Below, in pieces: positions 1-22,659 of a stretch of 32,000 bases of DNA (within the stretch, counting starts at the first letter, position 1; the number at the start of each line of letters is the position of its first letter). The stretch comes from Ktedonobacterales bacterium. Its GTDB lineage: Bacteria > Chloroflexota > Ktedonobacteria > Ktedonobacterales > JADMIN01. The stretch is from the NCBI GenBank assembly GCA_030167145.1, contig CP126532.1:3840001-3872000 (forward strand), written 5' to 3'. Both the position numbers and the translations under genes were made by a program. The notes below the pieces were generated by a model. It was not told where the DNA came from. It saw only the letters and a program-made list of their open reading frames with translations, and searched no databases.

Positions 1-651
1 GGCCGGCGGGGCGGGGGAGCGCCGGTTGGTGGCGCCACGCAGGCGGCGCGTGGGGGCGATGAGGAGGCGTCTGCATGGCGGAGCGCGTGGCGGCGGGCGC
101 GGGCCAGCACGTTCGAGCGCGGCACGCTGCTGGCGCTGGCGCTGGTGGTGATCGCTGTGCCGTTCGGCATTGGCCTGTATATGGCGTATCTGAAGCTGAA
201 GTACGGTCATCCCTTGCTCTTCCTGCACGTGCAGGAATATTTCTGGCACCGGCAAACCGTCGCGCTGTGGGAGAGCATTCCGCAGGCGATTCAGCAGTGG
301 CTGAGCCTGCCGGGCTTGAGTTTCTGGCAATCACGCGGCCTGATTGACCTCGTGCCGCTGGCGGTCTGCGCGCTGGTAGCGCTGGTGAGCATCCGGCGGC
401 TGCCGTTCGCGTTCACGCTGTATATGCTCGGTCTGATCTATCTAACAGTCCGCAGCCCGATCTTTGAGCCAGCGTATCCTGATATACTCAGTTCATCGGG
501 GCGCTTCATGCTGGCTGCGATACCCGTCTTCCTCATCCTTGGTCAGTGGACACGGCGGCGTCCCGGCCTGGAGATGCTCTTGATAAGCGGCGGATTTCTG
601 CTTCAGGCACTCTTTGCGGCTTACTTTCTGTCGGGAGGCTGGCTGGTCTGA
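1..651 (+). CDS. PIG-V-like GT-C membrane glycosyltransferase, paralog 1 (3' portion; 5' end upstream of window)
   Basis: Frame 1 has no stop from nt 1 to TGA 649-651, so listed ORF 145..651 is only the tail. The C-terminus aligns by eye with the next two genes (RRLPFAFTLYMLGLIYL vs RRMPFAFTLYMLGLLYL; GGFLLQALFAAYFL vs SGFLLQAVLLANFL vs GGFMLQALFAVYFL). Confidence 0.7.
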   Translation, partial: GRRGGGAPVGGATQAARGGDEEASAWRSAWRRARASTFERGTLLALALVVIAVPFGIGLYMAYLKLKYGHPLLFLHVQEYFWHRQTVALWESIPQAIQQWLSLPGLSFWQSRGLIDLVPLAVCALVALVSIRRLPFAFTLYMLGLIYLTVRSPIFEPAYPDILSSSGRFMLAAIPVFLILGQWTRRRPGLEMLLISGGFLLQALFAAYFLSGGWLV

Positions 652-1937
652 TGGGTGGTGACAACCGCATCGTGGTGGGCGTGCGGGGGGCGCGTGAGCG
701 TCTCTGGCGCGGTTGGCGCATGCCGCCGACGCACGGGCGTCTGCTAGACGCCCCTACGGGTGGCGCGCCGCCGCTGATGTGGAGGGCGATTGCGAAAGAG
801 GCGGCAGTCTATTGGCTGGCGAGCCGCGCGCTGCTGCTGGTCTTCACCTGGGTCGCGTTCTTGGTCGGTGTCCCCGCCGCGCAGGGCCAGCCCACCAGCG
901 ATCCCGCGCTGCTGCTGCACGCCTGGCTGCATTGGGATGGCTATTGGTACGAGGGCATCGCGCGGCTGGGCTATTGGAATGGGCAGTCAACCGCGTTCTT
1001 TCCGCTCTATCCGTTGCTCATCGGCGCGGGGACGTTGCTGATTGGCGAGCAGAATCGCTGGTTTGCGGCGCTGCTGGTGGCGAACCTTGGCACGCTGGCG
1101 GCGTTCATCGGCATGGCGCTGTTGGCGGCCAATGAGTACGGCGCGCGGACGGCAGTCGGCACACTGCGCGCACTGGTGGTGTATCCCGCCGCGTTCTTTC
1201 TCGCCGCGCCCTATACCGAGGGCATTTTTCTTGGCTGCGCCGCGTTCGGCCTGCTCTTTGCGCGACGCGGCGCGTGGGGTTGGGCGGCGCTCTGCGTGTT
1301 GCTGGCGTGCCTCACCCGAATCACCGGCGTGATTCTAATTTTGCCGCTGGTGTGGGAGTTCGTCCGCCAGCAACGGCAGACTGGCCTGCCAGCGGATCGG
1401 CGGGGACGCTGGCGAGCGCTGGCGACGCTGGCGATGGTGGCATGCGCGGGGCCGCTGGGCATCGGCGTCTACATGCTATATCTCTGGGGCAGGTTCGGCA
1501 ACCCTACGATCTTTCTCAGCGTGGAGCAGGTGTACTGGGGGCACAACACGACGCCATTGTGGGATTCGCTGGCGCTTGCCGCCGCACGCTACGGCGCGAT
1601 CCCGCCATGGACGATGTCGCATGCGCTGATGTTGATCGAGGTGAGCGCGCTGCTGATCTTCGCAGTCTTCACGCTGGTGACAATGCGCCGTATGCCGTTT
1701 GCGTTTACGCTGTATATGCTGGGTCTGTTGTATCTCTGCGTCTCGTCGCCGATTCTCAAAGTTCCCGACATCTATCAATCGTCCGCGCGCTATCTGATCG
1801 TCGGCGCGCCGTTCTTCGTGCTGCTGGGGCGTGAGATGCAGTGCCGCCCATGGCTGGATTTCTTGGTGGTGTGTAGCGGCTTCTTGTTGCAGGCGGTGCT
1901 GCTGGCGAACTTTCTGGCGGGGAACTGGGTGTTATGA
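651..1937 (+). CDS. PIG-V-like GT-C membrane mannosyltransferase-family protein, paralog 2
   Basis: Multi-TM protein with the HWDGYWYEGIARLGY...FFPLYPLL motif typical of the PIG-V mannosyltransferase family. ATG 651 overlaps the paralog-1 stop (TGATG). The track's GTG 546 start overlaps the upstream gene. Alternative start is ATG 777 (MWRAIAKE), which would leave REP-like copy A intergenic. Confidence 0.8.
   Translation: MGGDNRIVVGVRGARERLWRGWRMPPTHGRLLDAPTGGAPPLMWRAIAKEAAVYWLASRALLLVFTWVAFLVGVPAAQGQPTSDPALLLHAWLHWDGYWYEGIARLGYWNGQSTAFFPLYPLLIGAGTLLIGEQNRWFAALLVANLGTLAAFIGMALLAANEYGARTAVGTLRALVVYPAAFFLAAPYTEGIFLGCAAFGLLFARRGAWGWAALCVLLACLTRITGVILILPLVWEFVRQQRQTGLPADRRGRWRALATLAMVACAGPLGIGVYMLYLWGRFGNPTIFLSVEQVYWGHNTTPLWDSLALAAARYGAIPPWTMSHALMLIEVSALLIFAVFTLVTMRRMPFAFTLYMLGLLYLCVSSPILKVPDIYQSSARYLIVGAPFFVLLGREMQCRPWLDFLVVCSGFLLQAVLLANFLAGNWVL
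735..758 (+). repeat. REP-like hairpin+CTACG element, copy A
   Basis: GGGCGTC-TGCTA-GACGCCC-CTACG: perfect 7-bp stem, 5-nt loop, CTACG tail. Confidence 0.6.
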
Positions 1938-3298
1938 GCGAACACATGCCGCCGCGCAGGCAGGTCACGCTGGCGACGGCGCAGGCGGCGACGTATCGCT
2001 GGCTGAGCGCGGGTCGTGCGGCGCTGCACTGCGTGCGGGCGGCGATCAGCGCGCCGGAGCATCGCTGGCGCGCGGTGGCGCTGCGGGCGGGGGTATTCTG
2101 GCTCATCACGCGCTTCGTGCTGCTGGGGCTTACCTACTACGCGCTGGTCTTCCGCCCACACGTCCCCGTGGAACAGGTGATTCCGTCACGGCTACTCTAT
2201 GCTGCCTGGTTGCATGGAGATGCATCGGGCTATCTAGCCATCGCGGCACATGGCTACGAGACGCCGCACCTCAGCGCGTTCTTGCCGCTGTATCCGTTGC
2301 TGGCGCGGGTCGGAGCTATCTTCGCGGGCGGTTCTGTCGCGGCGGGGGCGCTGCTGGTGAGCCAGCTCGCGGCGCTGGCGGCGTTCATCGCGCTGGCGCT
2401 GCTGGCGGCTGATCTACGCCCTGGCACATCTCCGGCGCGGGCGCTGGCGGTGTTCGTGGCGTATCCCTTTGCGTTCATGCTGGCCGCCGCCACCAATGAT
2501 GCCCTGTTCGTCGCACTAGTTGCCGGTGTGCTGCTGCTGGCGCGGCTTGGTCGCTGGCGCTGGGCGGCGGTCTGCGCGTTCCTGGCGGGATTGACGGCGC
2601 TGCCCGCGCTGGCGTTGGTGATTCCGATGGTGTGGATGTATGGACAGCGGCGGCAGTGGTGGCGCGCGGACTATTGGCGTGGGTGTCAGTGGTGGCGTAT
2701 CGCGGAGGGTGTCCGCCGGACACCCCTACGCAATGAAAGGGCGGACATTCCTGTCTGCGCCACTGTCTGGCGTGCGCCCCTGGAGATGGCAATGGTGGCG
2801 CTGGCCGTGCCCGCCGCGCTGGCGGTGTATGCGCTCTACTGTTGGGTGCGCTTCGGCAATGCGCTCGTCTTCGTTGGCGCGCAATCGGCGGCGCTGGGCC
2901 ACGGCATCTTTGATGTGCGCCCGTTCTTCGCGCTCACGTGGTCGGCGCTGACGGGTACACTGACGCCCCCGCAGGCGCAGACGCTGGTGGGCGCAGCGCT
3001 CGTCGTGACGATGTGCGCGGCGATCATCGTCGCCGCACGGCGCGGCGACTTACCGATGGCTGACACGCTATACCTGCTCGTGCTGCTGTACCTGAGCCTC
3101 GCCGCTGCGCGTCCCGCCCAGCCGCAGCCACTCGCCGGAAGTGGAAGCGTGCTGCTGGCGGCGCTGCCGCTCTTCGTGTGGGTGGCGCGGGAGTGCGAGC
3201 GCCGCTCTTGGCTGGACCTACTTGTACTCGGCGGTGGTTTTATGCTTCAGGCGCTGTTCGCCGTGTATTTCTTAAATGGGGGTGTGCTGCGCCCTTGA
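1934..3298 (+). CDS. PIG-V-like GT-C membrane glycosyltransferase, paralog 3 (diverged)
   Basis: ATGA stop/start overlap with paralog 2 (1934-1937). Equivalent motifs are present (LHGDASGYLAIAAHGYE...FLPLYPLL), the protein is multi-TM, and the C-terminus is conserved with paralogs 1 and 2. Confidence 0.8.
   Translation: MSEHMPPRRQVTLATAQAATYRWLSAGRAALHCVRAAISAPEHRWRAVALRAGVFWLITRFVLLGLTYYALVFRPHVPVEQVIPSRLLYAAWLHGDASGYLAIAAHGYETPHLSAFLPLYPLLARVGAIFAGGSVAAGALLVSQLAALAAFIALALLAADLRPGTSPARALAVFVAYPFAFMLAAATNDALFVALVAGVLLLARLGRWRWAAVCAFLAGLTALPALALVIPMVWMYGQRRQWWRADYWRGCQWWRIAEGVRRTPLRNERADIPVCATVWRAPLEMAMVALAVPAALAVYALYCWVRFGNALVFVGAQSAALGHGIFDVRPFFALTWSALTGTLTPPQAQTLVGAALVVTMCAAIIVAARRGDLPMADTLYLLVLLYLSLAAARPAQPQPLAGSGSVLLAALPLFVWVARECERRSWLDLLVLGGGFMLQALFAVYFLNGGVLRP
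2707..2730 (+). repeat. REP-like hairpin+CTACG element, copy B (inside CDS)
   Basis: GGGTGTC-CGCCG-GACACCC-CTACG: perfect stem. 25 of 26 nt are identical to copy C including the flanking AG. Confidence 0.6.
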
Positions 3299-3451
3299 AG
3301 CGTGCGCGTCTAGGGCATGCATGCTGGATAGGTCAGCGACGCGGCACAAGCTGCTATCATATGTGACGATGCAAAGGGAGCGGCGCCGATTTGTCGTCGC
3401 TGTTCATCCCGTGATAGCATGACTCAGCACGCATGTTCAGGAGGGATTCAT

Positions 3452-4042
3452 ATGACTGTCGTTCTGCCCCAGGCGCGCACTGCCGAAATCCGTGTGCTTT
3501 TCAATGGGTATGTCGGTGGGCATGTCGCCTCGACTGTCACCTACATTCGCGACGGCGAGACGCATATCATCGTTGACCCTGGCATGGTTCCGCAGCCGGA
3601 TGCGATCCTTGGCCCGCTGAGCCAGCTCGGCGTCCCGGCTGAGGCGATTACTGACGTGATCTTCTCGCACCACCATCCCGATCACACGCTCAACGCCGCA
3701 CTCTTTCCCAACGCTCGCTTTCATGACCACTGGGCCATTTACCAGGGCGACCTGTGGACCAGCCGGGAAGCGGAGGGCTATGCGGTGAGTCCGTGCGTGT
3801 GCCTGGCGGAGACGCCAGGGCATACCCCGCAGGACATCACCACGCTGATCGGCACGGCGGAGGGGATCGTTGCCTGTACGCATCTGTGGTGGGCGGCGAC
3901 TGGGCCAGCCGAGGATCCGTTGGCTACCGATTCACAGGCGCTGCATCGCGAGCGTGCGCGCATTCTGGAGATTGCCGACCTGAAGCTGATTATTCCGGGT
4001 CACGGCGCGCCGTTCGCGCCCACCGCGCAGACGCCGCGCTAG
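3452..4042 (+). CDS. MBL-fold metallo-hydrolase
   Basis: HxHxDH zinc motif (FSHHHPDHTLN). Downstream His/Asp residues (ETPGHTPQD, IPGHG) are present. AGGAGGG Shine-Dalgarno lies 6 nt before ATG 3452, which I prefer over the listed 3419 start. Confidence 0.8.
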   Translation: MTVVLPQARTAEIRVLFNGYVGGHVASTVTYIRDGETHIIVDPGMVPQPDAILGPLSQLGVPAEAITDVIFSHHHPDHTLNAALFPNARFHDHWAIYQGDLWTSREAEGYAVSPCVCLAETPGHTPQDITTLIGTAEGIVACTHLWWAATGPAEDPLATDSQALHRERARILEIADLKLIIPGHGAPFAPTAQTPR

Positions 4043-4049
4043 GCGCGCA

Positions 4050-4073
4050 GGGTGTCCGCCGGACGCCCCTACG
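4050..4073 (+). repeat. REP-like hairpin+CTACG element, copy C
   Basis: GGGTGTC-CGCCG-GACGCCC-CTACG with one T.G (U.G) wobble. It lies between the convergent MBL and nth genes. Confidence 0.6.
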
Positions 4074-4091
4074 ATGGGATGGATGATGGAG

Positions 4092-4820
4092 CTAGGCTTT
4101 GGCGCGCTTGCTGCGTGCGGGGGCCGTGGCGGGCGCGGCCTGGGTTGTCGCGCTGGCGCTGGTGTTGGCTTGGCCCGTCGGGCAGAGCGGCACCAGCGAA
4201 CACTGCTCGCAGAGCGGCTTGCGCGCCTGGCAGATGGCCCGTCCGTGGTAGATCAGCATGTGCGAGAGGTCGAGCCAGTCGGATTGGGGCAGCAGCGCCA
4301 TCAGGTCTTGCTCCACTTTCACCGGGTCTTCGCTCTCCGTCAGGCCAAGCCGCCGCGCGATACGCCCGACATGGGTATCCACCACGACGCCCTCGACGAT
4401 GCCGTAGGCGTTGCCCATCACCACGTTCGCCGTCTTGCGCGCCACCCCCGGCAACTGAATCAGTTGCGCCATCTCACGCGGCACCTCGCCGTTGAAGCGC
4501 TCGACCAGTATCATTCCCGCCGCGCGAATATTCTTGGCTTTGTTGCGGTAGAATCCAGTCTGCTTGACATCCTGCTCCAGTTCTTCGGGCGCGGCGTTGG
4601 CGTAGTCGGCGGCGGTGCGGTACTTCTTGAAGAGCTTCGCTGTGACTTGATTGACGCGCTCGTCGGTGCATTGCGCCGAAAGGATCGTCGCCACCAGCAG
4701 TTCCAGTGGCGTCGTGAAGTCGAGCGAGCATTTGGCGTCGGGGTAGAGCGTGCGTAGCTCGGCCATGATGGCACGGGCGCGCTGCTGCTCGGCGGCTGAT
4801 GGCGTGGATGGCTCAGGCAT
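4092..4820 (-). CDS. nth: Endonuclease III (DNA glycosylase/AP lyase)
   Basis: HhH motif LPGVARKTANVV, catalytic-Asp region VDTHV, and a C-x6-C-x2-C-x5-C [4Fe-4S] ligand set (CQARKPLCEQCSLVPLC). GGGAG Shine-Dalgarno lies 6 nt before ATG 4820. The upstream 357 codons of listed ORF 4092..5891 are an antisense artefact. Confidence 0.93.
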   Translation of the reverse strand: MPEPSTPSAAEQQRARAIMAELRTLYPDAKCSLDFTTPLELLVATILSAQCTDERVNQVTAKLFKKYRTAADYANAAPEELEQDVKQTGFYRNKAKNIRAAGMILVERFNGEVPREMAQLIQLPGVARKTANVVMGNAYGIVEGVVVDTHVGRIARRLGLTESEDPVKVEQDLMALLPQSDWLDLSHMLIYHGRAICQARKPLCEQCSLVPLCPTGQANTSASATTQAAPATAPARSKRAKA

Positions 4821-4846
4821 GAAATGCTCCCAATGAAAAATGGACG

Positions 4847-7800
4847 CTAGCGGAAGAAAATTGCCGCCAAATGCGACAGGATGATATCGGGTGCGATCAA
4901 GGCGAGGTGCGAGCCGATGAAGCTCGGCGTCCACTGGGCCTGGTGCGCGGGCAGCGTTGCCTCGAAGTACCAGAAGAAGGTACGAATGGCGCTGACCACG
5001 AGGAAGACCAGCAAGAGCATACGCCCAATCTGCTCTGGTGTCGAGAAGACGCGCACACCGTTGATGCGGTCCAGCACGATGGGCAGATGGCTCAGCCAGA
5101 GGCCCACCACGTAGAGACCGTAGGCGGGGACAATGCACATGGCGGGCAGCACGCTCGCCGCTTCGATGGCGCCGGTAGGCGTGCCAACGGCGACGCTGGC
5201 GACCAGCGGCAGGGCGGTCAACAGCAGCAGCGCCAGGGACTCGAAGCGCCGCCAGCGCACGACGATGACGAGCAGGCCGATGAAGAAGAACGGCCCCAAC
5301 AGCAGCGGAATGATGGGCGCGCCGCCTACGGCTGGGTACCCGGCGGTGTAGTCCTGAGATACCAGCACATTCAGCACATCGGCAATATTGCGCGCCACCA
5401 CGACCCAGAAGGGTGGCGAGAGCGGTGTGGGGCCAATGCCGGGCAGCACGGTGGTTTTGGCGAGAAAGGAGCTGCCAGGCGCGAAGCCAATCACGCGGTT
5501 CAGGTACTGCCAGATCACCGGACTGCCGACAATCAGGGTCGTCACGACCAGGGCGATCAAGCCTTCGCGCGGCACCGTGCGTCCTTTGGGGCGCCGCAGG
5601 TGCCACATCCCCAAGAATCCTGCGACGATCAGTGGCACCAACCAAAGCCCCGGCGCGAGATCGCACGCCAGGCCGGTACACACGCCGCTGAGGATGAAGT
5701 AGAGCATTCTGCGCCGCGCCAGTGGGATGGAGGGCACGCGCAGCCGCTCGGCGAGTGGCGTTGAGGTGGTACGCGCACGATACAGCGGCGTCTCGCGCTC
5801 TTCGCGCGCCGACGTCTGCGCCTGCGAGGCTGACTGCGCGCCGCGTGGCTGTGAGCGCAGCGCTAGCAGTAGCCAGTAGAGCGCCATGCACATCAGCAGC
5901 GGCAGCACTACCAACTCCATGCCAGAGCGGCTGAGCGAGACGTGCCAGTGCGAGGTGGCGGCCAGGAGCGCCGCCAGAATCGCCACCGGACGTGTGCCAG
6001 GAAATTTGCCCTGGCGCATGATCTCGAAGGTCAGCAGATAGATGGCGATGACGGTGAGCGAGCCGAAGATGGCAGAGGGCAGCAGCACGGCGAAGGGTGT
6101 GCGCCCGAAGATCTGCACCAGCAGCGCTTGCAAGGCGTCGAACGGGCCGTGCAGACCCTGCGGGTCGGCCAGCCCCAGGCGCAGATCGCTGCCGACCTGC
6201 GCCAGCACGCTCGCCTCGTTGCTGCCCGCCGGTATGGTTGAGAAGATGTTGCCGAGCCGGATCAAGCGCAGCAGCGCCGCCACCACGACGATCAGCACCA
6301 CCATCACACGCTCCCAGAAGATGGGCCGCTGCGTCAATCCCTGACCGAGCATGCCGAGATAGCGGCGGACGACCTGGGACCAGCCGCTCTCATACGGGGC
6401 GGCGCGCAACAAGAGCAATGGCCCGAAGGCCACCATGATCTCGAAGAACTGCACGAACAGGTCATGCGCGAGGTCAGATTCGTTCACGAACAGGAAGTTG
6501 CCAACGGCGTAGGTCAGCAGTGCGCCGAGCGCCAGAATCGTGCCCTGCCGCCGGACAAACGGCTCTCTGGCGAGCGCTGCTAGTGGGATAAGCCACGTCA
6601 CGTACCAGGGTTGGAACCAAAAGGTGATGAGCAGCAGCGCGGCAAAGGTGATTTTGGCGGCGGCGGTCAGCACGTCGTGCAGGGTCATCTTGCGGCCCAT
6701 GCTCCAGAGCCGCGTCGTTTGCATGTAGGCATAGATGAAGAAGAGCGCGTAGAAGATGAGGCGCAAGGTCTTATCCAGCGCCGCATCCTGGCTGGATGGT
6801 ACGACAATCTGGAGCGGACCGGAGATGAAGCCGACGATGGAGCTATTGTAGTAGAGCGGGCGCAGTTGCTGACCCAGACCGGTGAAGGTGCTGAGGCCGT
6901 GCCAGTAGGGCGCATAAGCGAGGATCGTCAGCGGGAGCCCAATCAGCGCTACGGGCGTCAGCAGCGCGAGCACGTCGCGCGGGTTCACCTGGCGCACGGT
7001 GGCTGCCGCGCCGCGAATCCACGCGCCGACCACTGCGGGGAGGCCTTCGGGGGATTCGGTCTCGCTTTCGTCTTCTACTTCAGACGCCGTCTCTTCCGGC
7101 GTGGCTCGCGCGATGCGCCGGCGTAGCTCGTAGACGAACCAGAGTGGTAGGAAGATGATCGAAACGTATTTGATGAGCGCACCGATCACGAAGAAGAAGA
7201 CTGCCCAGCGCGGGTGGTCGCGGCGCATCAACTCGAATGCCGCCAGCACGCAGACCATCATCACCAGATCGTTGTGGGCGTTGCCGATGGAATCGAAGAG
7301 AATCAACGGGCACCAGCCGACCAGCGCCGCCACACGCAGGCGGCGCTCCGGGCAAACCGCGCGCGCCAGCAGATCTACCAGCCAGATGGTGAGCGCGAGA
7401 GCCACGAAGCCGATGAGCTTGTACGCCAGCATATTCGCCAGCAGATCTTCGCCGCCCAGCGCGGAGATGGCCCATGTCACCAGCAGCCACAGCGGGCCAT
7501 ATGGCGAGGGCGGGCGATCTACGGAGAGGCCGCCGGGCAGCAGTGAGGCCGGATTGGTCATCGGGTTCTGGTGCAGATGGGCCTGGATGTAGCCACGCGC
7601 GACGTAGCCGTAGAGGTCGGTGGTGGTGACGGGCTGCATCCAAATCATCACCGCCGCGAAGGCAAGCGGCAAGAAGAGGATCAGCGCCCGCACGAAGCGG
7701 TCACGGCGCGATGCGGGACCAATCTGCCGCACCTTGCCGCCGGCGAGCATGGCGACGAACTGGCAGGCGAAGAGCAGCACAATCGCCGTCACGAAGCCGA

Positions 7801-8110
7801 TGGCGGCGAAGGGGCTGTAGCCGGTGATGCGCCCCATATCGTTGATGTTATTGGCGAGGTCGGAGGTATGAGGATGGTTCCACCAGGTGGTGAGCGGAAA
7901 GGCGAGGACGAAGCCCATGTAAATGAGGATCGAGACCGCGCCCGCGCCGAGTACTAGCCACTGCGGCGCGATACCACGGAAGCGATGGGCGACGGCATCT
8001 TCGGAGCGCGGATTGAAACCAGGGATCGGCGGCGCACTGCCAAAGAAGCCAGCGCGCTGTTTTGTCTCGTCGCCCTCATGCACTCGTGCCGGGGCCGCGC
8101 TGTTCTTCAT
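4847..8110 (-). CDS. Two-module GT-C membrane glycosyltransferase fusion (N: MptA/MptB-like; C: ArnT/PMT-like)
   Basis: More than 20 predicted TM segments. The N half carries TTDLYGYVARGY...NP...SPYGPLW and GNAHNDLVMM, which resemble mycobacterial MptA/B-type motifs. The C half (from about nt 6330 downward) carries LRLIRLG...NEASVLAQ...FGRTPFAVLLPSAIFGSLTVIAIY, resembling the ArnT/PMT_2 N-terminal region. ATG 8110 lies 4 nt after the upstream stop; the alternative start is 8140. Confidence 0.8.
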   Translation of the reverse strand: MKNSAAPARVHEGDETKQRAGFFGSAPPIPGFNPRSEDAVAHRFRGIAPQWLVLGAGAVSILIYMGFVLAFPLTTWWNHPHTSDLANNINDMGRITGYSPFAAIGFVTAIVLLFACQFVAMLAGGKVRQIGPASRRDRFVRALILFLPLAFAAVMIWMQPVTTTDLYGYVARGYIQAHLHQNPMTNPASLLPGGLSVDRPPSPYGPLWLLVTWAISALGGEDLLANMLAYKLIGFVALALTIWLVDLLARAVCPERRLRVAALVGWCPLILFDSIGNAHNDLVMMVCVLAAFELMRRDHPRWAVFFFVIGALIKYVSIIFLPLWFVYELRRRIARATPEETASEVEDESETESPEGLPAVVGAWIRGAAATVRQVNPRDVLALLTPVALIGLPLTILAYAPYWHGLSTFTGLGQQLRPLYYNSSIVGFISGPLQIVVPSSQDAALDKTLRLIFYALFFIYAYMQTTRLWSMGRKMTLHDVLTAAAKITFAALLLITFWFQPWYVTWLIPLAALAREPFVRRQGTILALGALLTYAVGNFLFVNESDLAHDLFVQFFEIMVAFGPLLLLRAAPYESGWSQVVRRYLGMLGQGLTQRPIFWERVMVVLIVVVAALLRLIRLGNIFSTIPAGSNEASVLAQVGSDLRLGLADPQGLHGPFDALQALLVQIFGRTPFAVLLPSAIFGSLTVIAIYLLTFEIMRQGKFPGTRPVAILAALLAATSHWHVSLSRSGMELVVLPLLMCMALYWLLLALRSQPRGAQSASQAQTSAREERETPLYRARTTSTPLAERLRVPSIPLARRRMLYFILSGVCTGLACDLAPGLWLVPLIVAGFLGMWHLRRPKGRTVPREGLIALVVTTLIVGSPVIWQYLNRVIGFAPGSSFLAKTTVLPGIGPTPLSPPFWVVVARNIADVLNVLVSQDYTAGYPAVGGAPIIPLLLGPFFFIGLLVIVVRWRRFESLALLLLTALPLVASVAVGTPTGAIEAASVLPAMCIVPAYGLYVVGLWLSHLPIVLDRINGVRVFSTPEQIGRMLLLVFLVVSAIRTFFWYFEATLPAHQAQWTPSFIGSHLALIAPDIILSHLAAIFFR

Positions 8111-8114
8111 TACC

Positions 8115-9560
8115 CTACCCTTGCCCTGTTGCATGCACAATCTTGCGTGGCCAGCTCCATAATGCCACCAATAGTGCCGCGTAAGCTAGTATCCATGCCA
8201 TATTCCTCAGACTCAGCAGCGCCACGGCCCACGGTTGCAGCCGCACCAGCGCCTGCCACACGCCGGGGTTCGCCAGACATTGCCCCGCGAGCGAGGCCAC
8301 CAGTAGCCCCAGCAGCCAGAGCCGCTGTGTTCGCGCCGCTGGCAGGCGGATCAGCGCCGCCAGCGGCAGCACCGCCAGCAGATAATGGGCAGGCAGCGCG
8401 CGAAACGCGAGCGTGAAGCTGAGCAGCGCCGCTGCCACCGCGATGGCGAGCAGTTGTCGCCCATCGGTGCGGTCCTGACCGCGCTGCATACGAATCACGC
8501 GCCAGAGTCCAAGATAGGTCACCAGCAAGAACAAGCCCAGAGCCAGCCGCGTGACATCGTTGGCGTAGGGGTCGAGCAGTGAATGGACCACGCGCGAGAG
8601 GTCCGGCGGCGAAAACGCGGTATGCAAGCCGAATCCCGGCAGCCAGCCGAGGGCAAGTTGTATATTCCCGTAGAGGCTCTCGATTTCGGTATCGCGTGCC
8701 GTCTGGTTAGCTATCGCGCCGAGTAGCCGTGCTCCGCCGCCCGCCAGGACGATCAGCAGCACCCAGGCGAGCACGACGCTCGCAAAGGCTGCCGCGCCGC
8801 GTAGCAGTGGCTGCGCGCGGTCGCGTAGCGCAGCCAGCAGGCCAGAGCGCGGTGAGCAGTAGAGCTGGTAGCCAATCAGCACGGGCAGCGCGAGGAGTGG
8901 GAAGCCCTTAAGCAGCGTCGCCAGCGCCAGCGCGGCCCAGGCTAAGCCGTCGCGCCGTTCTACGGTGGCAACGACGGCGACGAGGCAGAGCAACCCCGCC
9001 GCGAGATCGAATTTCTGGAAGAGCGCGCCACTGGCAAAGACCAAAGCAATGTAGAGCAGACCCGACCGCAGGCCGTAGCGGTCGGCTGGCGCGAAGCGCA
9101 GCGCGGCGCGGCGCACCAGCCAGAGCGTGAGCGCATCGAGCAGCAGCATCTGCACGGCGAAGCTGATGCCATACGCGCCGTAGCGGAGCGGGTTGGGATG
9201 GGGGAAGCTGGTGACGACGCCCGCGAACGCCGCATCCGGGCGCGGGGCAATCGCCGCGAAGGGCAGCAGCGGCAGCGCGGGGAGGAGAATCAGCAGCAGC
9301 GCCAGCGGCGGATACTCGACGGGGTAGTCGCGATAGGGCCACTGGCCAGCGGCGAGCTTGCCCGCGTAGTTATAGAACTGCGGATCGCTGTAGGTATGTC
9401 CCAGCAGCAACGCCACGAAGAGCAGCAGCCGGGTGACGGCCCACGCGCCCCAGAGCACGCGCGTCGCCGTGGCGGGGGAAGCCTCCAACCTGTTCCACAG
9501 CGCCAGCAATGTCGCACGGCGCGTGGTGTCGCGTGGTAGTGTGACGCCGCTCAGCTTCAT
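8115..9560 (-). CDS. GT87/DUF2029-like polytopic membrane glycosyltransferase
   Basis: SDPQFYNYAGKLAAGQWPYRDYPVEYPPLALLL matches the D..Y......G..PY.D...EYPP signature of the DUF2029/GT87 family. The protein is multi-TM. ATG 9560 lies 6 nt after the upstream stop. Confidence 0.8.
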   Translation of the reverse strand: MKLSGVTLPRDTTRRATLLALWNRLEASPATATRVLWGAWAVTRLLLFVALLLGHTYSDPQFYNYAGKLAAGQWPYRDYPVEYPPLALLLILLPALPLLPFAAIAPRPDAAFAGVVTSFPHPNPLRYGAYGISFAVQMLLLDALTLWLVRRAALRFAPADRYGLRSGLLYIALVFASGALFQKFDLAAGLLCLVAVVATVERRDGLAWAALALATLLKGFPLLALPVLIGYQLYCSPRSGLLAALRDRAQPLLRGAAAFASVVLAWVLLIVLAGGGARLLGAIANQTARDTEIESLYGNIQLALGWLPGFGLHTAFSPPDLSRVVHSLLDPYANDVTRLALGLFLLVTYLGLWRVIRMQRGQDRTDGRQLLAIAVAAALLSFTLAFRALPAHYLLAVLPLAALIRLPAARTQRLWLLGLLVASLAGQCLANPGVWQALVRLQPWAVALLSLRNMAWILAYAALLVALWSWPRKIVHATGQG

Positions 9561-9566
9561 GCTGGC

Positions 9567-10988
9567 TCACCGCCTTCGTATGGTGCGCGCCCAGCGTTTG
9601 GCGCTGCGTGCGACCTGTGGCGAGGCTACGACACTGGCGCGTGAGGCGAACAGCGTACCCTCCTGCCACATCCGCCAGAGCAGCAGCACGACGGCGGGCA
9701 GCGCGACGAAGTAGAAGTAGGTCGTCAGGCTGCGCCATGCGAAGAAGAGCGGCAGCACGGCCAGCACGAACCCAACTTCTGGCATGCGCCGCCCGTAGCG
9801 CCAGTACCAGGCGATACAGCCCAGGATTGCCAGCCCTTCGAGCGCGGTGTAGACGATTTGTGGGGGCAGCGGCAGAAGTCCCGCCAGCGAGAGCTGCACC
9901 AGGCCGTTGCCCAACGGGAACATTTTGTCTACCTGTGGGGCGAGCACGCCCGCCAGCCACGCCTGAGGATTGTTGACGATGAACGGGCCGTTGATGAGCA
10001 AGAAGATCGCGCCCGCGCCTGCCAGGCATTTCGCCGCCGCGCGCCAGCCATATTCGCGCCATACCAGGATCGCGTAGTAGGGCAAGAAGAACCATGCGAG
10101 TTGCTTCGCGGCGATGGCCAGCCCCAGGAAGAGCGTGGAGAGCAGGGGACGCCGCCACCAGCGCCACGCGACGAAGAGCAGCAGGATATACAGCACGTCG
10201 AGGTCGCCGGCCACCGTCGCGTTCAGCAGCGGGGCGTCGGCTAGCGCCAGCAGCCCGACCCAGAGCCGTAGCTCCGGCGGGACGGAGAATAAAAGCAGTA
10301 ACACCAGTGCGAAGAAGCAGAGCGCGAAGAACGGCACGACACTTGGCAGCCCCAGCCACACGACCGGAACGAGCGGCAGAAATGCCAGCGCCGGATAGCT
10401 CACCCGCGACTCAAATTCGTGCGCAGCGTTCGGGTTGTCTGCTGGCTCCAACGCGAAGACCGCGCGCATTTGCTGGTTCGTGGGATAGCCATGCGGGTAG
10501 AGCGGGGCGAAGACGCCTTCGCCCAGCGGTGTGGTGTGCTCGGCGTCCTGGCCGTAGAGCCGCACCGCTGCGATGATATTCACCGTCACATACGGGTTAT
10601 GCCCTTCGAGCAGTTGTTGCGCGGCGTAGTGGTCCAGCGTGGTGCCGTCGTTGGGATAGAGCGGCGCGTGAAAGCCTGAGGTGAGCAGCGCGCCCACCTG
10701 ATTCACGCCGATGACACAGGCCGCCAGCGTCAGCGCGAGTACCACTGTCTGCGTCCACCGTGAGCGCAGCCAGCGCCAGCCGGGGAGCCGGGGCCGCAGC
10801 GCGAGCAGCAACAGGAGGAGCGATACGGCCAGCGCGGCGACGATCACCAGACCGGTCAACGGCTTGCCCAGTGCGTTGCGTAGGGGCGCGCGTGGCAGTT
10901 CGATGAAGTTTTGCAGGGCGATAACGAGGCCCAGCAGTGTCAGCCGTGCGGCCACGTCGCCATGCGGCAGCCAACCGTAGGGGCGCAT
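9567..10988 (-). CDS. GT-C-like polytopic membrane protein (putative glycosyltransferase)
   Basis: Multi-TM protein with a loop motif LLEGHNPY...SYPALAFLPL. The start is uncertain: GTG 11099 abuts the hemB stop, ATG 10988 lies within REP-like copy D, and GTG 10955 is also possible. Confidence 0.7.
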   Translation of the reverse strand: MRPYGWLPHGDVAARLTLLGLVIALQNFIELPRAPLRNALGKPLTGLVIVAALAVSLLLLLLALRPRLPGWRWLRSRWTQTVVLALTLAACVIGVNQVGALLTSGFHAPLYPNDGTTLDHYAAQQLLEGHNPYVTVNIIAAVRLYGQDAEHTTPLGEGVFAPLYPHGYPTNQQMRAVFALEPADNPNAAHEFESRVSYPALAFLPLVPVVWLGLPSVVPFFALCFFALVLLLLFSVPPELRLWVGLLALADAPLLNATVAGDLDVLYILLLFVAWRWWRRPLLSTLFLGLAIAAKQLAWFFLPYYAILVWREYGWRAAAKCLAGAGAIFLLINGPFIVNNPQAWLAGVLAPQVDKMFPLGNGLVQLSLAGLLPLPPQIVYTALEGLAILGCIAWYWRYGRRMPEVGFVLAVLPLFFAWRSLTTYFYFVALPAVVLLLWRMWQEGTLFASRASVVASPQVARSAKRWARTIRRR

Positions 10989-10999
10989 GGCGTGCGCCC
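10976..10999 (-). repeat. REP-like hairpin+CTACG element, copy D
   Basis: The minus strand reads GGGCGCA-CGCCA-TGCGCCC-CTACG: perfect 7-bp stem, 5-nt loop. It lies just downstream of the hemB stop. Confidence 0.6.
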
Positions 11000-11099
11000 A
11001 GTGGGCGCGGCGCTTCCTCGCCGTGCTTGTGGCTCCGCGCCTTCGTCTCGCTCCGCTCCCTGCCCCCGCCGTTGTCGTATCGCGCACACCTGTTTGCAC

Positions 11100-12152
11100 T
11101 TAATCTCCAGCGAGCCAGCGCGCCGCGTCCAGCGCATGATAGGTCAGGATCATGTCGGCCCCCGCACGCTTGATGCCGGTGAGCAGTTCCAGGGTGGCGC
11201 GGCGCTCGTCGAGCCAGCCATTAGCTGCCGCAGCCTTGAGCATCGCGTATTCGCCGCTGACGTTGTAGGCCGCCACTGGCAAGTCCCAGCGGTCGCGCAC
11301 TCGCGCCAGCACATCCAGATATGGCAGCGCTGGTTTGACCATCACGATATCCGCGCCTTCCAGGATGTCCAGTTCCACCTCGCGCAGCGCCTCGCGCCCG
11401 TTCGCCGGGTCCATCTGGTATGCGCGCCGGTCGCCGAATTGCGGTGTAGACTCCGCCGCCTCGCGGAATGGTCCGTAGAACGCCGAGGCGAACTTGGCGG
11501 CATAGGCCATGATTGGCAGATGGGAATAGCCGGTGCTATCCAGCGCTGCGCGCAGCGCCGCCACGCGCCCATCCATCATATCGGAGGGCGCGACCACATC
11601 TGCCCCGGCTTCCGCATGCGAGAGCGCCTCACGCGCCAGTAGGTCGAGCGTTTCGTCGTTCTGCACTTCGCCGTCGCGCACCAGCCCGCAGTGGCCGTGG
11701 CTGGTATATTCGCAGAGACAGACATCGGTCACGACGACTAGTTCAGGCGCGGCGTCCTTGATCTCGCGAATGGCTCGTTGCACGATGCCGTCCCGGTTGT
11801 AGGCCTCCGAGCCGAGTTCGTCTTTGTGCGCGGGGATGCCGAAGAGGATGACACCGCCAATGCCCAGGCTTGCGATTTCTCTGGCCTGCGCGCGCAGCGC
11901 CGCGAGCGGCAACTGAGACTGACCTGGCATGGCGCTGATCGCCACCGGCTCGGTGACGGTCTCGCTGATGAACAGCGGATAAATGAAGTCCGCCGGATCG
12001 AGGCTGGTCTCGCGCACCATGCGTCGCAGTCCCTCGGTGCGGCGGAGGCGGCGCATGCGCCGCGCGGGAAAGCCGCCCGCAACCTGTGGCGTGCGCGCGG
12101 CGGGCGCCTCTGGCGCTGTCGTCTGCTGGTGGCTCTGTCGTGTGTCGAGCAT
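11100..12152 (-). CDS. hemB: Porphobilinogen synthase (delta-aminolevulinate dehydratase), Zn-type
   Basis: Family-typical RRMRRLRR...FIYPLFI N-terminus, the Cys triad [14 protein letters not shown], and the YNVSGEYAM and ILTYHA motifs. GGAAGGA Shine-Dalgarno lies 5 nt before ATG 12152, which I prefer over the listed 12197. Confidence 0.93.
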
Positions 12153-12209
12153 ATATATCCTTCCCTGAACCTCGCGCATGGGCATATCGCGTCGCACATT
12201 ATCAGGCGG

Positions 12210-12455
12210 CTAGCTCTTCTTGAATGGCAGCAGCAGCAGCGCGCCGAAGGCGGCGAGCGCTGGAATCAGATAGAGAAGCCCCTGGAGCGTGTCGTCGCGG
12301 GTGTGCGCGTTGACGAGACTCCAGATGCTGAAGATACCGAAACCGATGCCAATGATGAAGAGCAGCAGTGTGCTCTGAAACTGCTTCGACATATCCCGCC
12401 TCATGCCGCGTGGCGCGGCGCTTTCGTCGCCAGAATCGGGTACAGAATAGCCCAT
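12210..12455 (-). CDS. Small two-TM membrane protein (hypothetical)
   Basis: Two hydrophobic helices (LLLFIIGIGFGIFSIW; LLYLIPALAAFGALLLL), and the stop lies just upstream of hemB. The start could instead be the internal ATG at 12392 (MSKQFQ). No family was recognised. Confidence 0.4.
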   Translation of the reverse strand: MGYSVPDSGDESAAPRGMRRDMSKQFQSTLLLFIIGIGFGIFSIWSLVNAHTRDDTLQGLLYLIPALAAFGALLLLPFKKS

Positions 12456-12536
12456 CAGAGTATATCATGGGCGCTGCCACGGTCACTATCGCGTGGGACG
12501 TGGTGGATATGTTATCGTAGAGGCAGAGCAGAACAC

Positions 12537-13238
12537 ATGGAGTGCGCGGAAGCGAAACGCAAAACGATGATGACACCCGACCAACCAAGCCAACCACAGC
12601 AGCAGCGCCCTACATCTACTGGCCCCGCCCCTGATGACGTGCAGTGGCCCGCCGGAGCGGCGCCGCACACGCCCGAAGAGCTAGATGCGCTGCTGGCGAG
12701 CGCCAACCGCCGCCGCAGTCCAGCCTATCTCGCGCTTGTGCATGGCGCGAACGCCACCGGCGAGTGGCTGCGCCGCCACTGGCTGGCCGTGGTCAACGGC
12801 TTTCTGGCGACGTATGTCGGTCTCGCGGTGCTGACACCTATCGCGTTCATGTTCGGCCTGACGGGACCAGCCACCGCCGTTTTCCGTGCCTATCGCCTCT
12901 TCTGCGACGAGCTGCCCACGCACTCATTTTTCATCGGCGGCTATCAGATGTGCCTCTGCGCCCGCTGCACCGCCATCTACACCAGCATGCTCATCGCCGG
13001 ACTCTTCCTTGCTTTCTACCGCAAGCGCCAGCATGTACGCGCGCTGCGCTGGTGGATCTGGGGACTGTGCATGCTGCCGATGGCGCTCGACGGCTTCACA
13101 CAGCTTTTCGGGCTGCGCGAGAGCAACGCCGGGCTGCGGCTGCTGACCGGCGCCATCTTCGGCCTATCCACCGCCTGGTTCCTCTTGCCGCAGATTCAGG
13201 CGGCGTCGGAACCTGACCCGCAACCTGCCAGAGCATGA
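12537..13238 (+). CDS. DUF2085-family membrane protein
   Basis: FCDELPTHSFFIGGYQMCLCARCTAIYTSM matches the DUF2085 signature (..SF....plCARCtGiY) followed by TM helices. The upstream part of listed ORF 11778..13238 is antisense to hemB. Confidence 0.75.
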   Translation: MECAEAKRKTMMTPDQPSQPQQQRPTSTGPAPDDVQWPAGAAPHTPEELDALLASANRRRSPAYLALVHGANATGEWLRRHWLAVVNGFLATYVGLAVLTPIAFMFGLTGPATAVFRAYRLFCDELPTHSFFIGGYQMCLCARCTAIYTSMLIAGLFLAFYRKRQHVRALRWWIWGLCMLPMALDGFTQLFGLRESNAGLRLLTGAIFGLSTAWFLLPQIQAASEPDPQPARA

Positions 13239-13247
13239 GCGGCACAT

Positions 13248-13853
13248 CTATGGTTGAGCCGTGATGCGAGCCAGCCCTTCGTCGAAGCTCTCAGCGAATG
13301 AGCAGTGATAAGACCGAAGTTCTGCGAGAATGTCAGGGTCGCGAAAGTCTTTCCAATTGCGGCTGATGAAACACTTGTCGCCCTGTGAGGCACGTCGCTG
13401 TAAGTCGGCGATTACGGTCGCATAGATGATACTATCCTGCGGCGATAATCCAAAGCGCGATTGATATGCCAATGCCGCACTGAAACTCGTGCCGTCCATT
13501 TGTAAATAGATGCCGCAATCCAGAAGCCTGCGCACTGTCTCTTGCAGACGATCCGTCTCCTTTCTCGCGATGCTGCCAAGCAGCGCGGGCGCGGAAGCAA
13601 GCTCTGTTACTGTTTGCTGATGAGGCGACGAACGCTGAAGCTGGCGCAGCATTTCAGACAACGACTTGCTCATCTTGAGTTGCTCTTTGCCGCGATGTGT
13701 AAGCGTAGCAAACGGCTCACTCAAGGCGAAGCCAGGAAAGGCAAGCTCAATGCTATGTGCCTCAGCGAACTGTAAAATCGTCTCGGCTGACGCCGATTGC
13801 TCCTGACCTAGCGCGATCTCAAGGATGAAGTTGGACTCGACATACACGATCAT
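13248..13853 (-). CDS. PIN-like domain protein with ~75-aa helical insertion
   Basis: PIN-type pattern by eye: N-terminal strand plus acidic residue (MIVYVESNF), FALSEPFATL, SPQDSIIYATVIADL, and C-terminal CFISRNWKDF. ATG 13853 overlaps the upstream stop (ATGA). Local G+C is lower than in the flanks. Confidence 0.65.
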   Translation of the reverse strand: MIVYVESNFILEIALGQEQSASAETILQFAEAHSIELAFPGFALSEPFATLTHRGKEQLKMSKSLSEMLRQLQRSSPHQQTVTELASAPALLGSIARKETDRLQETVRRLLDCGIYLQMDGTSFSAALAYQSRFGLSPQDSIIYATVIADLQRRASQGDKCFISRNWKDFRDPDILAELRSYHCSFAESFDEGLARITAQP

Positions 13854-20999: not shown

Positions 21000-22013
21000 C
21001 TAGGCGTTCGCGTCCGCGCCATTAAAGCTTTCCGGGCCACCCAGATCGCCATGAGGCCGCATCGGCAACAGATGCCGCTGCAGCAGGCGTTCCTCTAGCT
21101 CAGTCAGGCTCTTCTCGCCGAAGTTGCGCACTGCCAGCAGGTCGTCGCGATTCATGGTGAGAATCTGGCCAACCTTGGTGATGTTGCTGCGCTTCAGGCA
21201 GTTGTAGGCCCGAACCGTCAACTCCAGCTCTTCGATGGGCATATCGTAGATGCGCTGCGGGATGGCATATTCGGTGGTTTTCGTCGAGCGCTCGCCGGCG
21301 TCAATCAGGCCGCGTGTCGGCTCATGCTCGACTGGCTCGTCGAACCCGGCGATCATCTCAAATTGCGAGACCAGCACACGCGCGGCCTGGCGAATGGCTT
21401 CGTCGGGTGTGAGTGTGCCATCGGTCCAGATGTGCAGCACGACTTTGTCGTAGTTGGTCATCTGGCCGACGCGGGTATGCTCGACGGTGTAATTCACGCG
21501 CTGCACCGGCGTGAAGATGGCGTCCACGGGGATCTGCCCGATGGGCTGATCTTCCTTGGATTCCGCGGGCACGTAGCCCTTGCCCGTCTCGACGACAAGC
21601 TCCATCTCGAAGCGCCCGTTGGGGTCGTCCACCGTGCAGATATGCAGATCTGGCGTGACGATTTCAACGGAACTGGGCGCCTGGATGTCGGCGGCGGTGA
21701 TGTCGCGCTCGCCGGTCACCTCGATGCGCATGGTGACAGGACGGTCGGAGAACGAACGTAGGCGCAGCTTCTTGACGTTGAGGACGATGTCGGTGACATC
21801 TTCCTTCACGCCCGGCACATCCTGGAACTCGTGCTTGACGCCTTCGATGCGAATGGAGGTGACGGCGGCGCCGCTGAGCGAAGAGAGCAGCATGCGCCGC
21901 AGCGAGTTGCCCAGCGTCATGCCATAGCCCGCTTCAAGCGGTTCGATGTCATAGCTGGCATACTGTTCGTCAGATTGGGTTGCGGTGATGTGCGGTACGG
22001 CAATATCTAGCAA
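21000..22013 (-). CDS. rpoA: DNA-directed RNA polymerase subunit alpha
   Basis: GYGMTLGNSLRRMLLSSL, and a C-terminal domain with ELELTVRAYNCLKR...NFGEKSL. AAGGAGG plus an 8-nt spacer precedes TTG 22013, giving 337 aa. The listed 22196 start overlaps rpsD. Confidence 0.93.
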   Translation of the reverse strand: MLDIAVPHITATQSDEQYASYDIEPLEAGYGMTLGNSLRRMLLSSLSGAAVTSIRIEGVKHEFQDVPGVKEDVTDIVLNVKKLRLRSFSDRPVTMRIEVTGERDITAADIQAPSSVEIVTPDLHICTVDDPNGRFEMELVVETGKGYVPAESKEDQPIGQIPVDAIFTPVQRVNYTVEHTRVGQMTNYDKVVLHIWTDGTLTPDEAIRQAARVLVSQFEMIAGFDEPVEHEPTRGLIDAGERSTKTTEYAIPQRIYDMPIEELELTVRAYNCLKRSNITKVGQILTMNRDDLLAVRNFGEKSLTELEERLLQRHLLPMRPHGDLGGPESFNGADANA

Positions 22014-22029
22014 GGGGATCCCCTCCTTA

Positions 22030-22659
22030 TTACCGCTGATAGTACTCGACGACCAGCGCCTCATCGAAGGGCAGTTCCAGATCCTGGCGGGTCGGAACCG
22101 CAAGAATTCGCCCGGCGAGGGCGGTGGTATCCAGACGCAGCCACGATGGCACGCCACGGGTGTTGAGCATGAGAGCGCGCGTCTTGAAATATTCAAGGTT
22201 GCGGCTGTTCTCGCGGACCGTCACCTCATCGCCGGGCTTGAGCGTGGCGGATGGGATGTCGAGCTTGCGGCCATTCACGCGGAAGTGCCCATGGGTGACG
22301 AGTTGGCGTGCCTGGGCGCGCGAATCGGCGAAGCCGAGGCGGTAAACGATATTGTCGGTGCGCATTTCGAGCAACTGCAACAGGTTTTCGCCGGTCTTGC
22401 CGGGGCGGCTGAGCGCAATATCGAAATAGCGTTTGAACTGGCGCTCCAGCAGGCCGTATGAGCGACGGACCTTCTGTTTCTCGCGCAACTGGACACCACG
22501 TCCAGAGAGCTTGCGCGCGCGGGCCTGGCCATGCTGACCGGGGCGGGTATTGCGCCGTTCGATGGCGCACTTGGAACTCATGCATCTGTCGCCCTTGAGA
22601 AAGAGCTTCATGCCTTCGCGTCTGCAGATGCGGCAGACCGGACCAGTATATCGGGCCAT
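22030..22659 (-). CDS. rpsD: 30S ribosomal protein S4
   Basis: [16 protein letters not shown]...KLFLKGDRC, with an S4 domain ([12 protein letters not shown]-like: [26 protein letters not shown]). Confidence 0.95.

Follow-up and report, generated by a model that had tools for sequence, protein, structure and literature searches.

The stretch of DNA analysed here, hereafter the window, comprises 32,000 nt with a GC content of 65% from a Ktedonobacterales bacterium (Chloroflexota), and four short hairpins directly followed by CTAC lie within it, which are very probably repetitive extragenic palindromic (REP) sequences of the GTAG-tagged superfamily. These elements are copy A (735..758, + strand, GGGCGTCT-GCT-AGACGCCC-CTAC(G)), copy B (2707..2730, + strand, GGGTGTCC-GCC-GGACACCC-CTAC(G)), copy C (4050..4073, + strand, GGGTGTCC-GCC-GGACGCCC-CTAC(G), with one T.G wobble), and copy D (10976..10999, - strand, GGGCGCA-CGCCA-TGCGCCC-CTAC(G)). 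An earlier note on this DNA had listed four 24-mers as a REP-like family, and all four are present at the positions and on the strands that it gave. The note also placed the whole set in a glycosyltransferase region; the copies do all fall within the first 11 kb, but their clustering (4 in 10.3 of 32 kb) is not significant (P ~0.1, our own scan-statistic estimate).

The genes around the copies start, on the + strand, with three tandem paralogs of PIG-V/GPI18-like mannosyltransferases (paralog 1, up to 651; paralog 2, ~651/780-1937; paralog 3, 1934-3298), followed by a metallo-beta-lactamase (MBL)-fold hydrolase (3419/3452-4042). On the - strand lie nth (4092-~4760) and the genes for a 1097-aa PMT_2/GT87 protein (4847-8140), a 481-aa protein (8115-9560) and a GT87-family protein (9567-10988), together with hemB (11100-~12150). 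Copies A, C, and D had been assigned to gene junctions, and none had been claimed for copy B. The assignment stands for copy C, which is inside the 49-nt spacer between the convergent genes for the MBL-fold hydrolase (stop at 4042) and nth (stop at 4092). Copy A follows the stop codon of paralog 1 at 651 and precedes the core of paralog 2 that is conserved, which begins at ~780. It is either in a 128-nt spacer or, should paralog 2 use as its start the ATG that overlaps this stop, in the N-terminal tail of that protein. Copy D, downstream of hemB (stop at 11100), overlaps the predicted start of the GT87-family gene, and copy B is within coding sequence and at no junction. Copies A and D are thus at or over gene starts, with copy B intragenic and in frame.

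Copy B is read in frame inside the open reading frame (ORF) of paralog 3 (1934-3298), where it encodes (E)GVRRTPLR. It is held in an in-frame insertion of ~60 nt (~20 aa; approximately 2705..2764, + strand; EGVRRTPLRNERADIPVCAT) that neither paralog 2 nor any of the seven database homologs has, with the homology of paralog 3 resuming in the same frame on either side. The remainder of the insertion beside copy B (2731-2780, + strand; ~36 nt extra) forms an additional branched fold, and the 86-nt region has a z of -3.96. A second, inverted REP beside copy B, which would make the pair a REP doublet forming hairpins (REPIN), was rejected because the folded remainder has neither a GTAG nor a GGG foot. 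Paralogs 2 and 3 share ~37% identity, and no database homolog of the PIG-V/GPI18-like proteins exceeded 41%.

At copy D, the predicted ATG of the GT87-family gene (10986..10988, - strand) is the first in-frame ATG and is contained in the loop and 3' arm of the hairpin. This start is supported by the ortholog in the related locus L249, which is called from the same ATG, and by its alignment with the called start in a further related locus, L250; the codon-position GC is coding-like only downstream of this ATG (10988-10986). The first five residues of the GT87-family protein after Met, RPYGW, are encoded by copy D, and the L250 ortholog has an N-terminus of equal length and different sequence (MPRWMALPRG).

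The recurrence of the element within the window is far above chance. The pattern GGG-N13-CCCCTACG gave four window matches, exactly copies A-D, compared to a mean of 0.02 in 100 dinucleotide-preserving shuffles of the window, none of which reached four. Searches of the window with two consensus sequences, allowing up to three mismatches, detected nothing beyond A-D and no degenerate copy, and an exhaustive check of all CTACG and CTAC occurrences, in either orientation, agreed with the earlier statement that the other 21 kb hold no hairpin-associated copy. The hairpins of all four copies appear in minimum free energy or centroid structures. The uniform geometry proposed before, a 7-bp stem with a 5-nt loop, applies to copy D but not to copies A, B, and C, in which the stem has 8 bp and the loop 3 nt. 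In every copy CTAC abuts the 3' arm directly and the stem foot is GGG...CCC. The tail had been given as CTACG, of which only the CTAC part held: copy D is followed by CTACA in L249, and among copies unselected on that base the next position was A in 44, G in 32, C in 12, and T in 6. As this base is not conserved, the tag is GTAG and not CGTAG. Over a length of 30 nt that takes in 6 nt upstream, copies B and C are identical at 28, and two stem subfamilies are present, a GTC/GAC type (A, B, and C) and a GCA/TGC type (D).

Other identities considered for the four copies were rejected. Intrinsic (Rho-independent) terminators were discarded because the tails (CTACGGGTGG, CTACGCAATG, CTACGATGGG, and CTACGGTTGG) contain no T tract and none is terminator-like, and a known structured RNA because there were no Rfam matches at the gathering threshold across the whole window. 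An array of CRISPR repeats does not agree with spacings of 1972, 1343, and ~6900 nt and with one copy on the opposite strand. A conserved peptide, raised in the earlier note as the outcome that would speak for protein-level conservation, was likewise rejected, as copies A, B, and D are in three codon phases and copy C is intergenic.

The earlier note had also reported that stem positions 4, 6, and 7 covary among the window copies, and this was verified, with a change from C-G to T-A at position 4 between A and B, and changes at positions 6 and 7 between A and D. As a guard against circularity, a wider sample of copies from other genomes was anchored on GGG-N13-CCCCTAC alone and not chosen by the search patterns. 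All five interior positions were Watson-Crick in 66 of the 103 anchored copies, whereas 6.8 were expected when the 3' arms were shuffled among copies. In a set of 69 distinct sequences (65 from other genomes and the four window copies), paired cells amounted to 91.7% compared to 73.2% in shuffles (0 of 500 shuffles reached the observed value), and cells changed on both sides numbered 106 compared to 33. The covariation score of this set was 0.456, with 0.117 for shuffled arms (again 0 of 500) and at most 0.073 for slid partners. Changes on both sides were found in five of the eight pairs, and pairs 6, 7, and 8 use four Watson-Crick types each. The structure is therefore kept through compensatory changes both in the window and in the 69-sequence sample.

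To see the element in other genomes, a degenerate pattern spanning all four copies was scanned against IMG/VR and GTDB genomes, and the GTC/GAC subtype against metagenome contigs (L numbers designate loci). None of the matches listed came from the window genome, and megablast of the window against the 248 loci of these pattern scans found nothing. The degenerate pattern matched 11 contig stretches of IMG/VR and at least 116 stretches of GTDB genomes belonging to at least 15 phyla, and the GTC/GAC subtype, which is that of copies A-C, was found in at least 120 metagenome contigs. The hosts among the matches listed include Chloroflexota (many classes, Ktedonobacterales among them), Cyanobacteria, Bacteroidota, Acidobacteriota, Desulfobacterota, Pseudomonadota, Bacillota, Zixibacteria, Armatimonadota, Deinococcota, Gemmatimonadota, Verrucomicrobiota, Actinomycetota, and others, and some host genomes that carry the hairpin with its CTAC have a GC content of 35-46%. 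The 23-mer is often identical across phyla, that of copy D being found in metagenome-assembled genomes (MAGs) of other phyla; among the matches listed the commonest variants were GGGCGCACGCCGTGCGCCCCTAC and GGGCGTATGCCATACGCCCCTAC, and the exact 24-mer of copy D occurred at least 11 times. The sequences flanking these copies show no relationship to one another, and conservation does not extend to any position beyond the 23-nt unit, which made a test for target-site preference uninformative. Inverted doublets or tandem clusters of the family occur in other genomes (L008, L108, L112, L114, and L174).

The ORFs of the fetched loci were clustered, which yielded one small family adjoining the hairpins, and a profile of this family was used to search the loci. 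In seven loci, all outside the window genome, a gene of 160-220 aa is flanked by the hairpin with CTAC: Abditibacteriaceae (L070), Dehalococcoidia (L105), Coleofasciculus (L115), Gallionellaceae (L122), Hydromonas (L126), and two metagenome contigs (L143, and L190 with two genes). The three proteins scanned (L070, L115, and L126) all passed Pfam Y1_Tnp, and they scored 70-80 bits with the NCBIfam equivalog NF047646, 'REP-associated tyrosine transposase' (RAYT), just under its cut-off of 80. A profile built from six of the transposases had as its best PDB match TnpAREP of E. coli (4ER8, E = 6.6e-9), aligned across the HUH, WQ, and Y motifs; a single RAYT sequence gave only a weak IS200 match, and it took the profile to arrive at 4ER8. 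The motifs of the family are NH[LFVI]H (DHLH in L070 and NHLH in several), WQ, and Y[IV]xxNP. The earlier proposal that the head-plus-palindrome layout ties these hairpins to RAYTs was thus borne out in other genomes, where the same hairpin and CTAC flank HUH/Y1 genes.

Most of these genes carry one or more copies of their own REP in frame, mainly between the motifs HUH and Y: L122 (3269-3907), L126 (6424-6954), L105 (972-1598), L143 (7611-8315), and both L190 genes (986-1492 and 4348-5052). Peptides encoded by the REPs within RAYT genes include VGAYGNTP, GRMPCAPT, and VGATFGRP. Each RAYT is accompanied by a stem variant specific to it, for instance GGGCGACC/GGTCGCCC or GGGAGGGG/CCCCTCCC, which is the co-variation that would be expected of enzyme and REP. 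Remnants of RAYT genes were seen in L053 and L103.

Comparison with relatives revealed gain and turnover of copies. The best matches of the window hemB are Ktedonobacterales MAGs. Locus L249 (GCA_036393035.1), with 93% nucleotide identity to window positions 7974-13246, has copy D in identical form, and no REP was found at the orthologous hemB-GT87 junction in the more distant Ktedonobacterales loci L250, L256, and L257, whose HemB proteins are 88, 84, and 83% identical to that of the window. At the site of copy C, L251 (87% identical over window positions 3192-4103) has another REP variant, GGGCATGG-CATG-CCACGCCC-CTAT, with a degenerate tail. Both the GTC/GAC and the GCA/TGC subtypes are carried by a related Ktedonobacterales MAG (L024, L250), and Ktedonobacterales DNA not selected for the element holds further stem variants.

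In L250 (11250-14678), the orthologs of the GT87-family and 481-aa genes are called as one 1142-aa ORF with ~400 extra nt between them, which may be a real fusion or read-through of an enlarged spacer; a REP at 12785-12807 lies in this joint, in the same codon phase as copy B, and would encode GVHRTPLR. The PIG-V-like block (1-3298) is not beside nth in the Ktedonobacterales loci L256 and L257, so that its placement is lineage-specific.

An architecture of this kind has been described before. Di Nocera et al. (2013, PMC3733652) defined the GTAG-tagged REP superfamily, with Chloroflexi included through the GTAG-23 elements of Thermomicrobium roseum, and reported that its subfamilies differ by complementary changes in the stem, that G.T pairs occur, and that some REPs are in frame within ORFs or provide codons to flanking ones. 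The elements studied here agree with these descriptions in a stem of 6-9 bp, a loop of 2-4 nt, the terminal GTAG, complementary stem changes, G.T pairs, and copies within ORFs. By contrast, the T. roseum elements are described as large blocks at few loci, inserted in small CCGSSCC palindromes, whereas the window copies are dispersed singletons without a CCGSSCC target; this comparison relies on the description of GTAG-23, whose consensus is given only in a figure. That the window might belong to a megaplasmid of the Thermomicrobium type was also considered, but megablast detected no plasmid in PLSDB that matched it. Exact look-ups of two window proteins in a protein collection likewise found neither.

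The closest agreement is with TnpAREP subclass 2.4, equivalent to RAYT Group 4, for which Quentin et al. (2018, PMC6006769) give the motifs NH[IFV]H / WQ / YIxNNP and a distribution over 'Cyanobacteria, Bacteroidetes and various phyla'. The 'canonical long REP' of this subclass bears GTAG and has three consecutive G-C pairs at the bottom of its stem, 'double foot' REPs occur, and, uniquely, in-frame REPs are found in tnpAREP between HuH and Y (PMC6006769). Group 4 is given as common in Cyanobacteria, Chlorobia, and Caldilineae by Bertels et al. (2017, PMC5581495). The window copies match this subclass in their 5' GTAG at the hairpin foot and their three G-C foot pairs, and the family elsewhere matches it in a double-foot variant (L163), in the in-frame REPs between HUH and Y in RAYTs of other genomes, and in a patchy spread over many phyla that includes Cyanobacteria, Bacteroidetes, and classes of Chloroflexi. 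Ktedonobacterales were not found named in the parts of PMC6006769 and PMC5581495 used here. Further differences from the subclass are that two stem subfamilies coexist in the window, that the link to RAYTs is known from loci of other genomes, and that the transposases scanned there scored slightly under the NF047646 cut-off. The double-foot element of L163 (3441-3469), CGTAG-GGGCGTCC-GGTG-GACGCCC-CTACG, is a REP when read on either strand.

Compared to other well-known populations, the elements resemble the REPs of E. coli, which form bacterial interspersed mosaic elements (BIMEs) and are served by TnpAREP, in the GTAG head with an imperfect palindrome, in a monomeric HUH/Y1 enzyme, and in the best profile match to 4ER8. 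They differ in that the stems of E. coli REPs are longer, bulged, and arranged in BIMEs, with a RAYT of subclass 2.2 (DHLH / WE / YIHYNP). With the REPINs known from Pseudomonas fluorescens (see Bertels and Rainey 2011, PMC3116915) they have in common that non-autonomous repeats are tied to a RAYT, and doublets of the family exist in L108, L112, L114, and L174. The four window copies, on the other hand, are singlets: no inverted partner REP was found near any of them, and none forms a REPIN.

Because the elements recur well beyond chance, vary by compensatory changes, flank RAYT genes elsewhere, and show an architecture already described, we consider it very likely that all four are REP sequences of the GTAG-tagged superfamily, of the type associated with TnpAREP subclass 2.4 / RAYT Group 4, and hence non-autonomous mobile DNA hairpins. 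They belong to an already described kind, to which a REP population in Ktedonobacterales is added, and the observation and the interpretation of the earlier note were both right, apart from the minor corrections given above.

The structure-preserving variation, the unrelated flanks, the lineage-specific presence or absence of copies, and the adjacency to RAYT genes in other genomes can be read directly from the sequences; how the copies would move is proposed here by analogy. In the biochemistry of E. coli TnpAREP and of IS200/IS605, the hairpin is recognised on single-stranded DNA, the tetranucleotide at its foot guides cleavage, and the unit is moved. In a comparable way, a single-domain HUH/Y1 transposase whose gene is at another place in the genome would bind the hairpin formed on single-stranded DNA, GTAG at its foot would serve as a guide or cleavage signal, and the transposase would excise the unit and insert it again elsewhere. 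Copies would thereby build up in spacers and in those gene regions that tolerate them, and their stems would change only via compensatory substitutions that keep the hairpin recognisable. Side effects on the host genes can be envisaged: copy C may act as a stable 3' hairpin between convergent genes, stabilising 3' ends; copy B probably adds a tolerated loop segment to a membrane glycosyltransferase paralog; and copy D, with the GT87 start codon held in its loop and 3' arm, could influence initiation.

Several observations weigh against identifying the elements as REPs. Neither in the window nor across the ~120 kb of DNA examined from Ktedonobacterales was a RAYT gene found, and, to our knowledge, no subclass 2.4 enzyme has been demonstrated to transpose its element. 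Many REP populations typically form inverted doublets, whereas the window copies occur singly, and copy C is the sole unambiguously extragenic one. Their density, 4 per 32 kb, is accompanied by modest values in unselected DNA of relatives (2 copies in 21 kb of L250 and 2 in 70 kb of L256-L259). The genome matches listed all come from MAGs, so that some taxonomic labels may reflect binning errors. Finally, the folding energies of the four copies with 10-nt flanks (z = -1.2, -2.7, +0.7, and -1.6 compared to shuffles) are no outliers for sequence of 65% GC; because they are unexceptional, the support comes from recurrence and covariation.

An alternative explanation, which appears unlikely to us, is that the hairpins, wherever they came from, are mainly RNA-level signals of the host, serving in 3'-end protection or attenuation of glycosyltransferase and MBL transcripts and in translational control of the GT87 gene. 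REPs of E. coli stabilise mRNA, and the arrangement of the window copies has features in the same direction: all four have the same orientation relative to the sense strand of neighbouring genes (hairpin and then CTAC in the mRNA), copy C begins 8 nt past a stop codon between convergent genes and its U.G wobble pairs only on that strand, and copy D encloses the predicted GT87 start codon. A common orientation of four copies, however, has a chance of ~1/8, no U-tract follows any copy and none resembles a terminator, there is no Rfam match, and in the larger sample T.G wobbles and A.C mismatches (roughly 13 vs 7, by our own count) are not clearly biased. RNA-level signalling would also leave the identical 23-mer beside transposase genes in other phyla unexplained, and it fits mobile REPs as a secondary effect rather than as an alternative to them.

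Far less probable is that the palindromes are operators of a host DNA-binding regulator over the glycosyltransferase cluster. Near-perfect DNA palindromes confined to the first 11 kb, which are rich in GT87, PMT_2, and PIG-V-like genes, might be expected of such sites, but the clustering is not significant, as estimated above, and one copy is within a coding region. The same sequence, moreover, turns up in contexts that have nothing in common, across at least 15 phyla, and beside RAYT genes, and the compensatory stem changes preserve a single-strand hairpin, not a fixed duplex site. The chance recurrence of GC-rich palindromes or the conservation of a short peptide, suggested by 65% GC, 261 inverted-repeat pairs in 12 kb, and three copies that may overlap ORFs, is next to impossible given 4 matches compared to 0.02 expected, three codon phases among the three ORF-overlapping copies with C intergenic, and recurrence of the element in hundreds of unrelated contigs.

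Taken as REPs, the elements catalogue a REP population in an order of large-genome Chloroflexota known mainly from MAGs. Between relatives with 87-93% nucleotide identity they provide clean cases of REPs being gained, turned over, and inserted in frame or at a start codon, and the near-identical hairpin across phyla, with its RAYT-specific stems, offers material on REP recognition and horizontal spread in Group 4 / subclass 2.4. They also carry a warning for annotation, as short in-frame insertions and odd start sites in such genomes may be REP copies. Current understanding is not overturned by these findings.

A bolder extension, which we regard as doubtful, is that this REP-RAYT type is an unusually promiscuous, horizontally spreading REPtron that is actively remodelling membrane glycosyltransferase genes in the Ktedonobacterales lineage. 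Behind it are the near or exact identity of the 23-nt hairpin across at least 15 phyla, with low-GC Bacteroidales and cyanobacteria among the hosts, and its presence in IMG/VR viral contigs. In such a scenario, copy B would have donated a loop of ~20 aa, and copy D would have donated the GT87 start and first codons, with the ATG held in a stable hairpin. If true, REPs would not be neutral litter, as their insertion would give rise to variation in proteins and in translation.

Some further features of the window and of the pattern-scan loci were recorded. The right part of the window, without REP copies, includes among its genes those for a PIN_12 domain protein, M29 and M20 peptidases, rpoA, and a luciferase-like monooxygenase (entries 13248-13853 (-) and 21000-22196 (-)). 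The cumulative GC skew peaks at ~11000-12000, the skew being positive in 1-11 kb and negative in 11-20 kb, a pattern that may simply reflect gene orientation and membrane-protein composition; the AT skew flips strongly between 1-4 kb and 5-11 kb, following the coding strand. Among the scanned loci, L001, L003, and L004 have one REP in common in an identical phage-like context. In L008 (2071-2762), an IMG/VR contig classed as viral, tandem units of ~51 nt combine a full REP with a second partial hairpin (GGGCGCACGTCAAGA), and four exact copies lie inside 700 nt.

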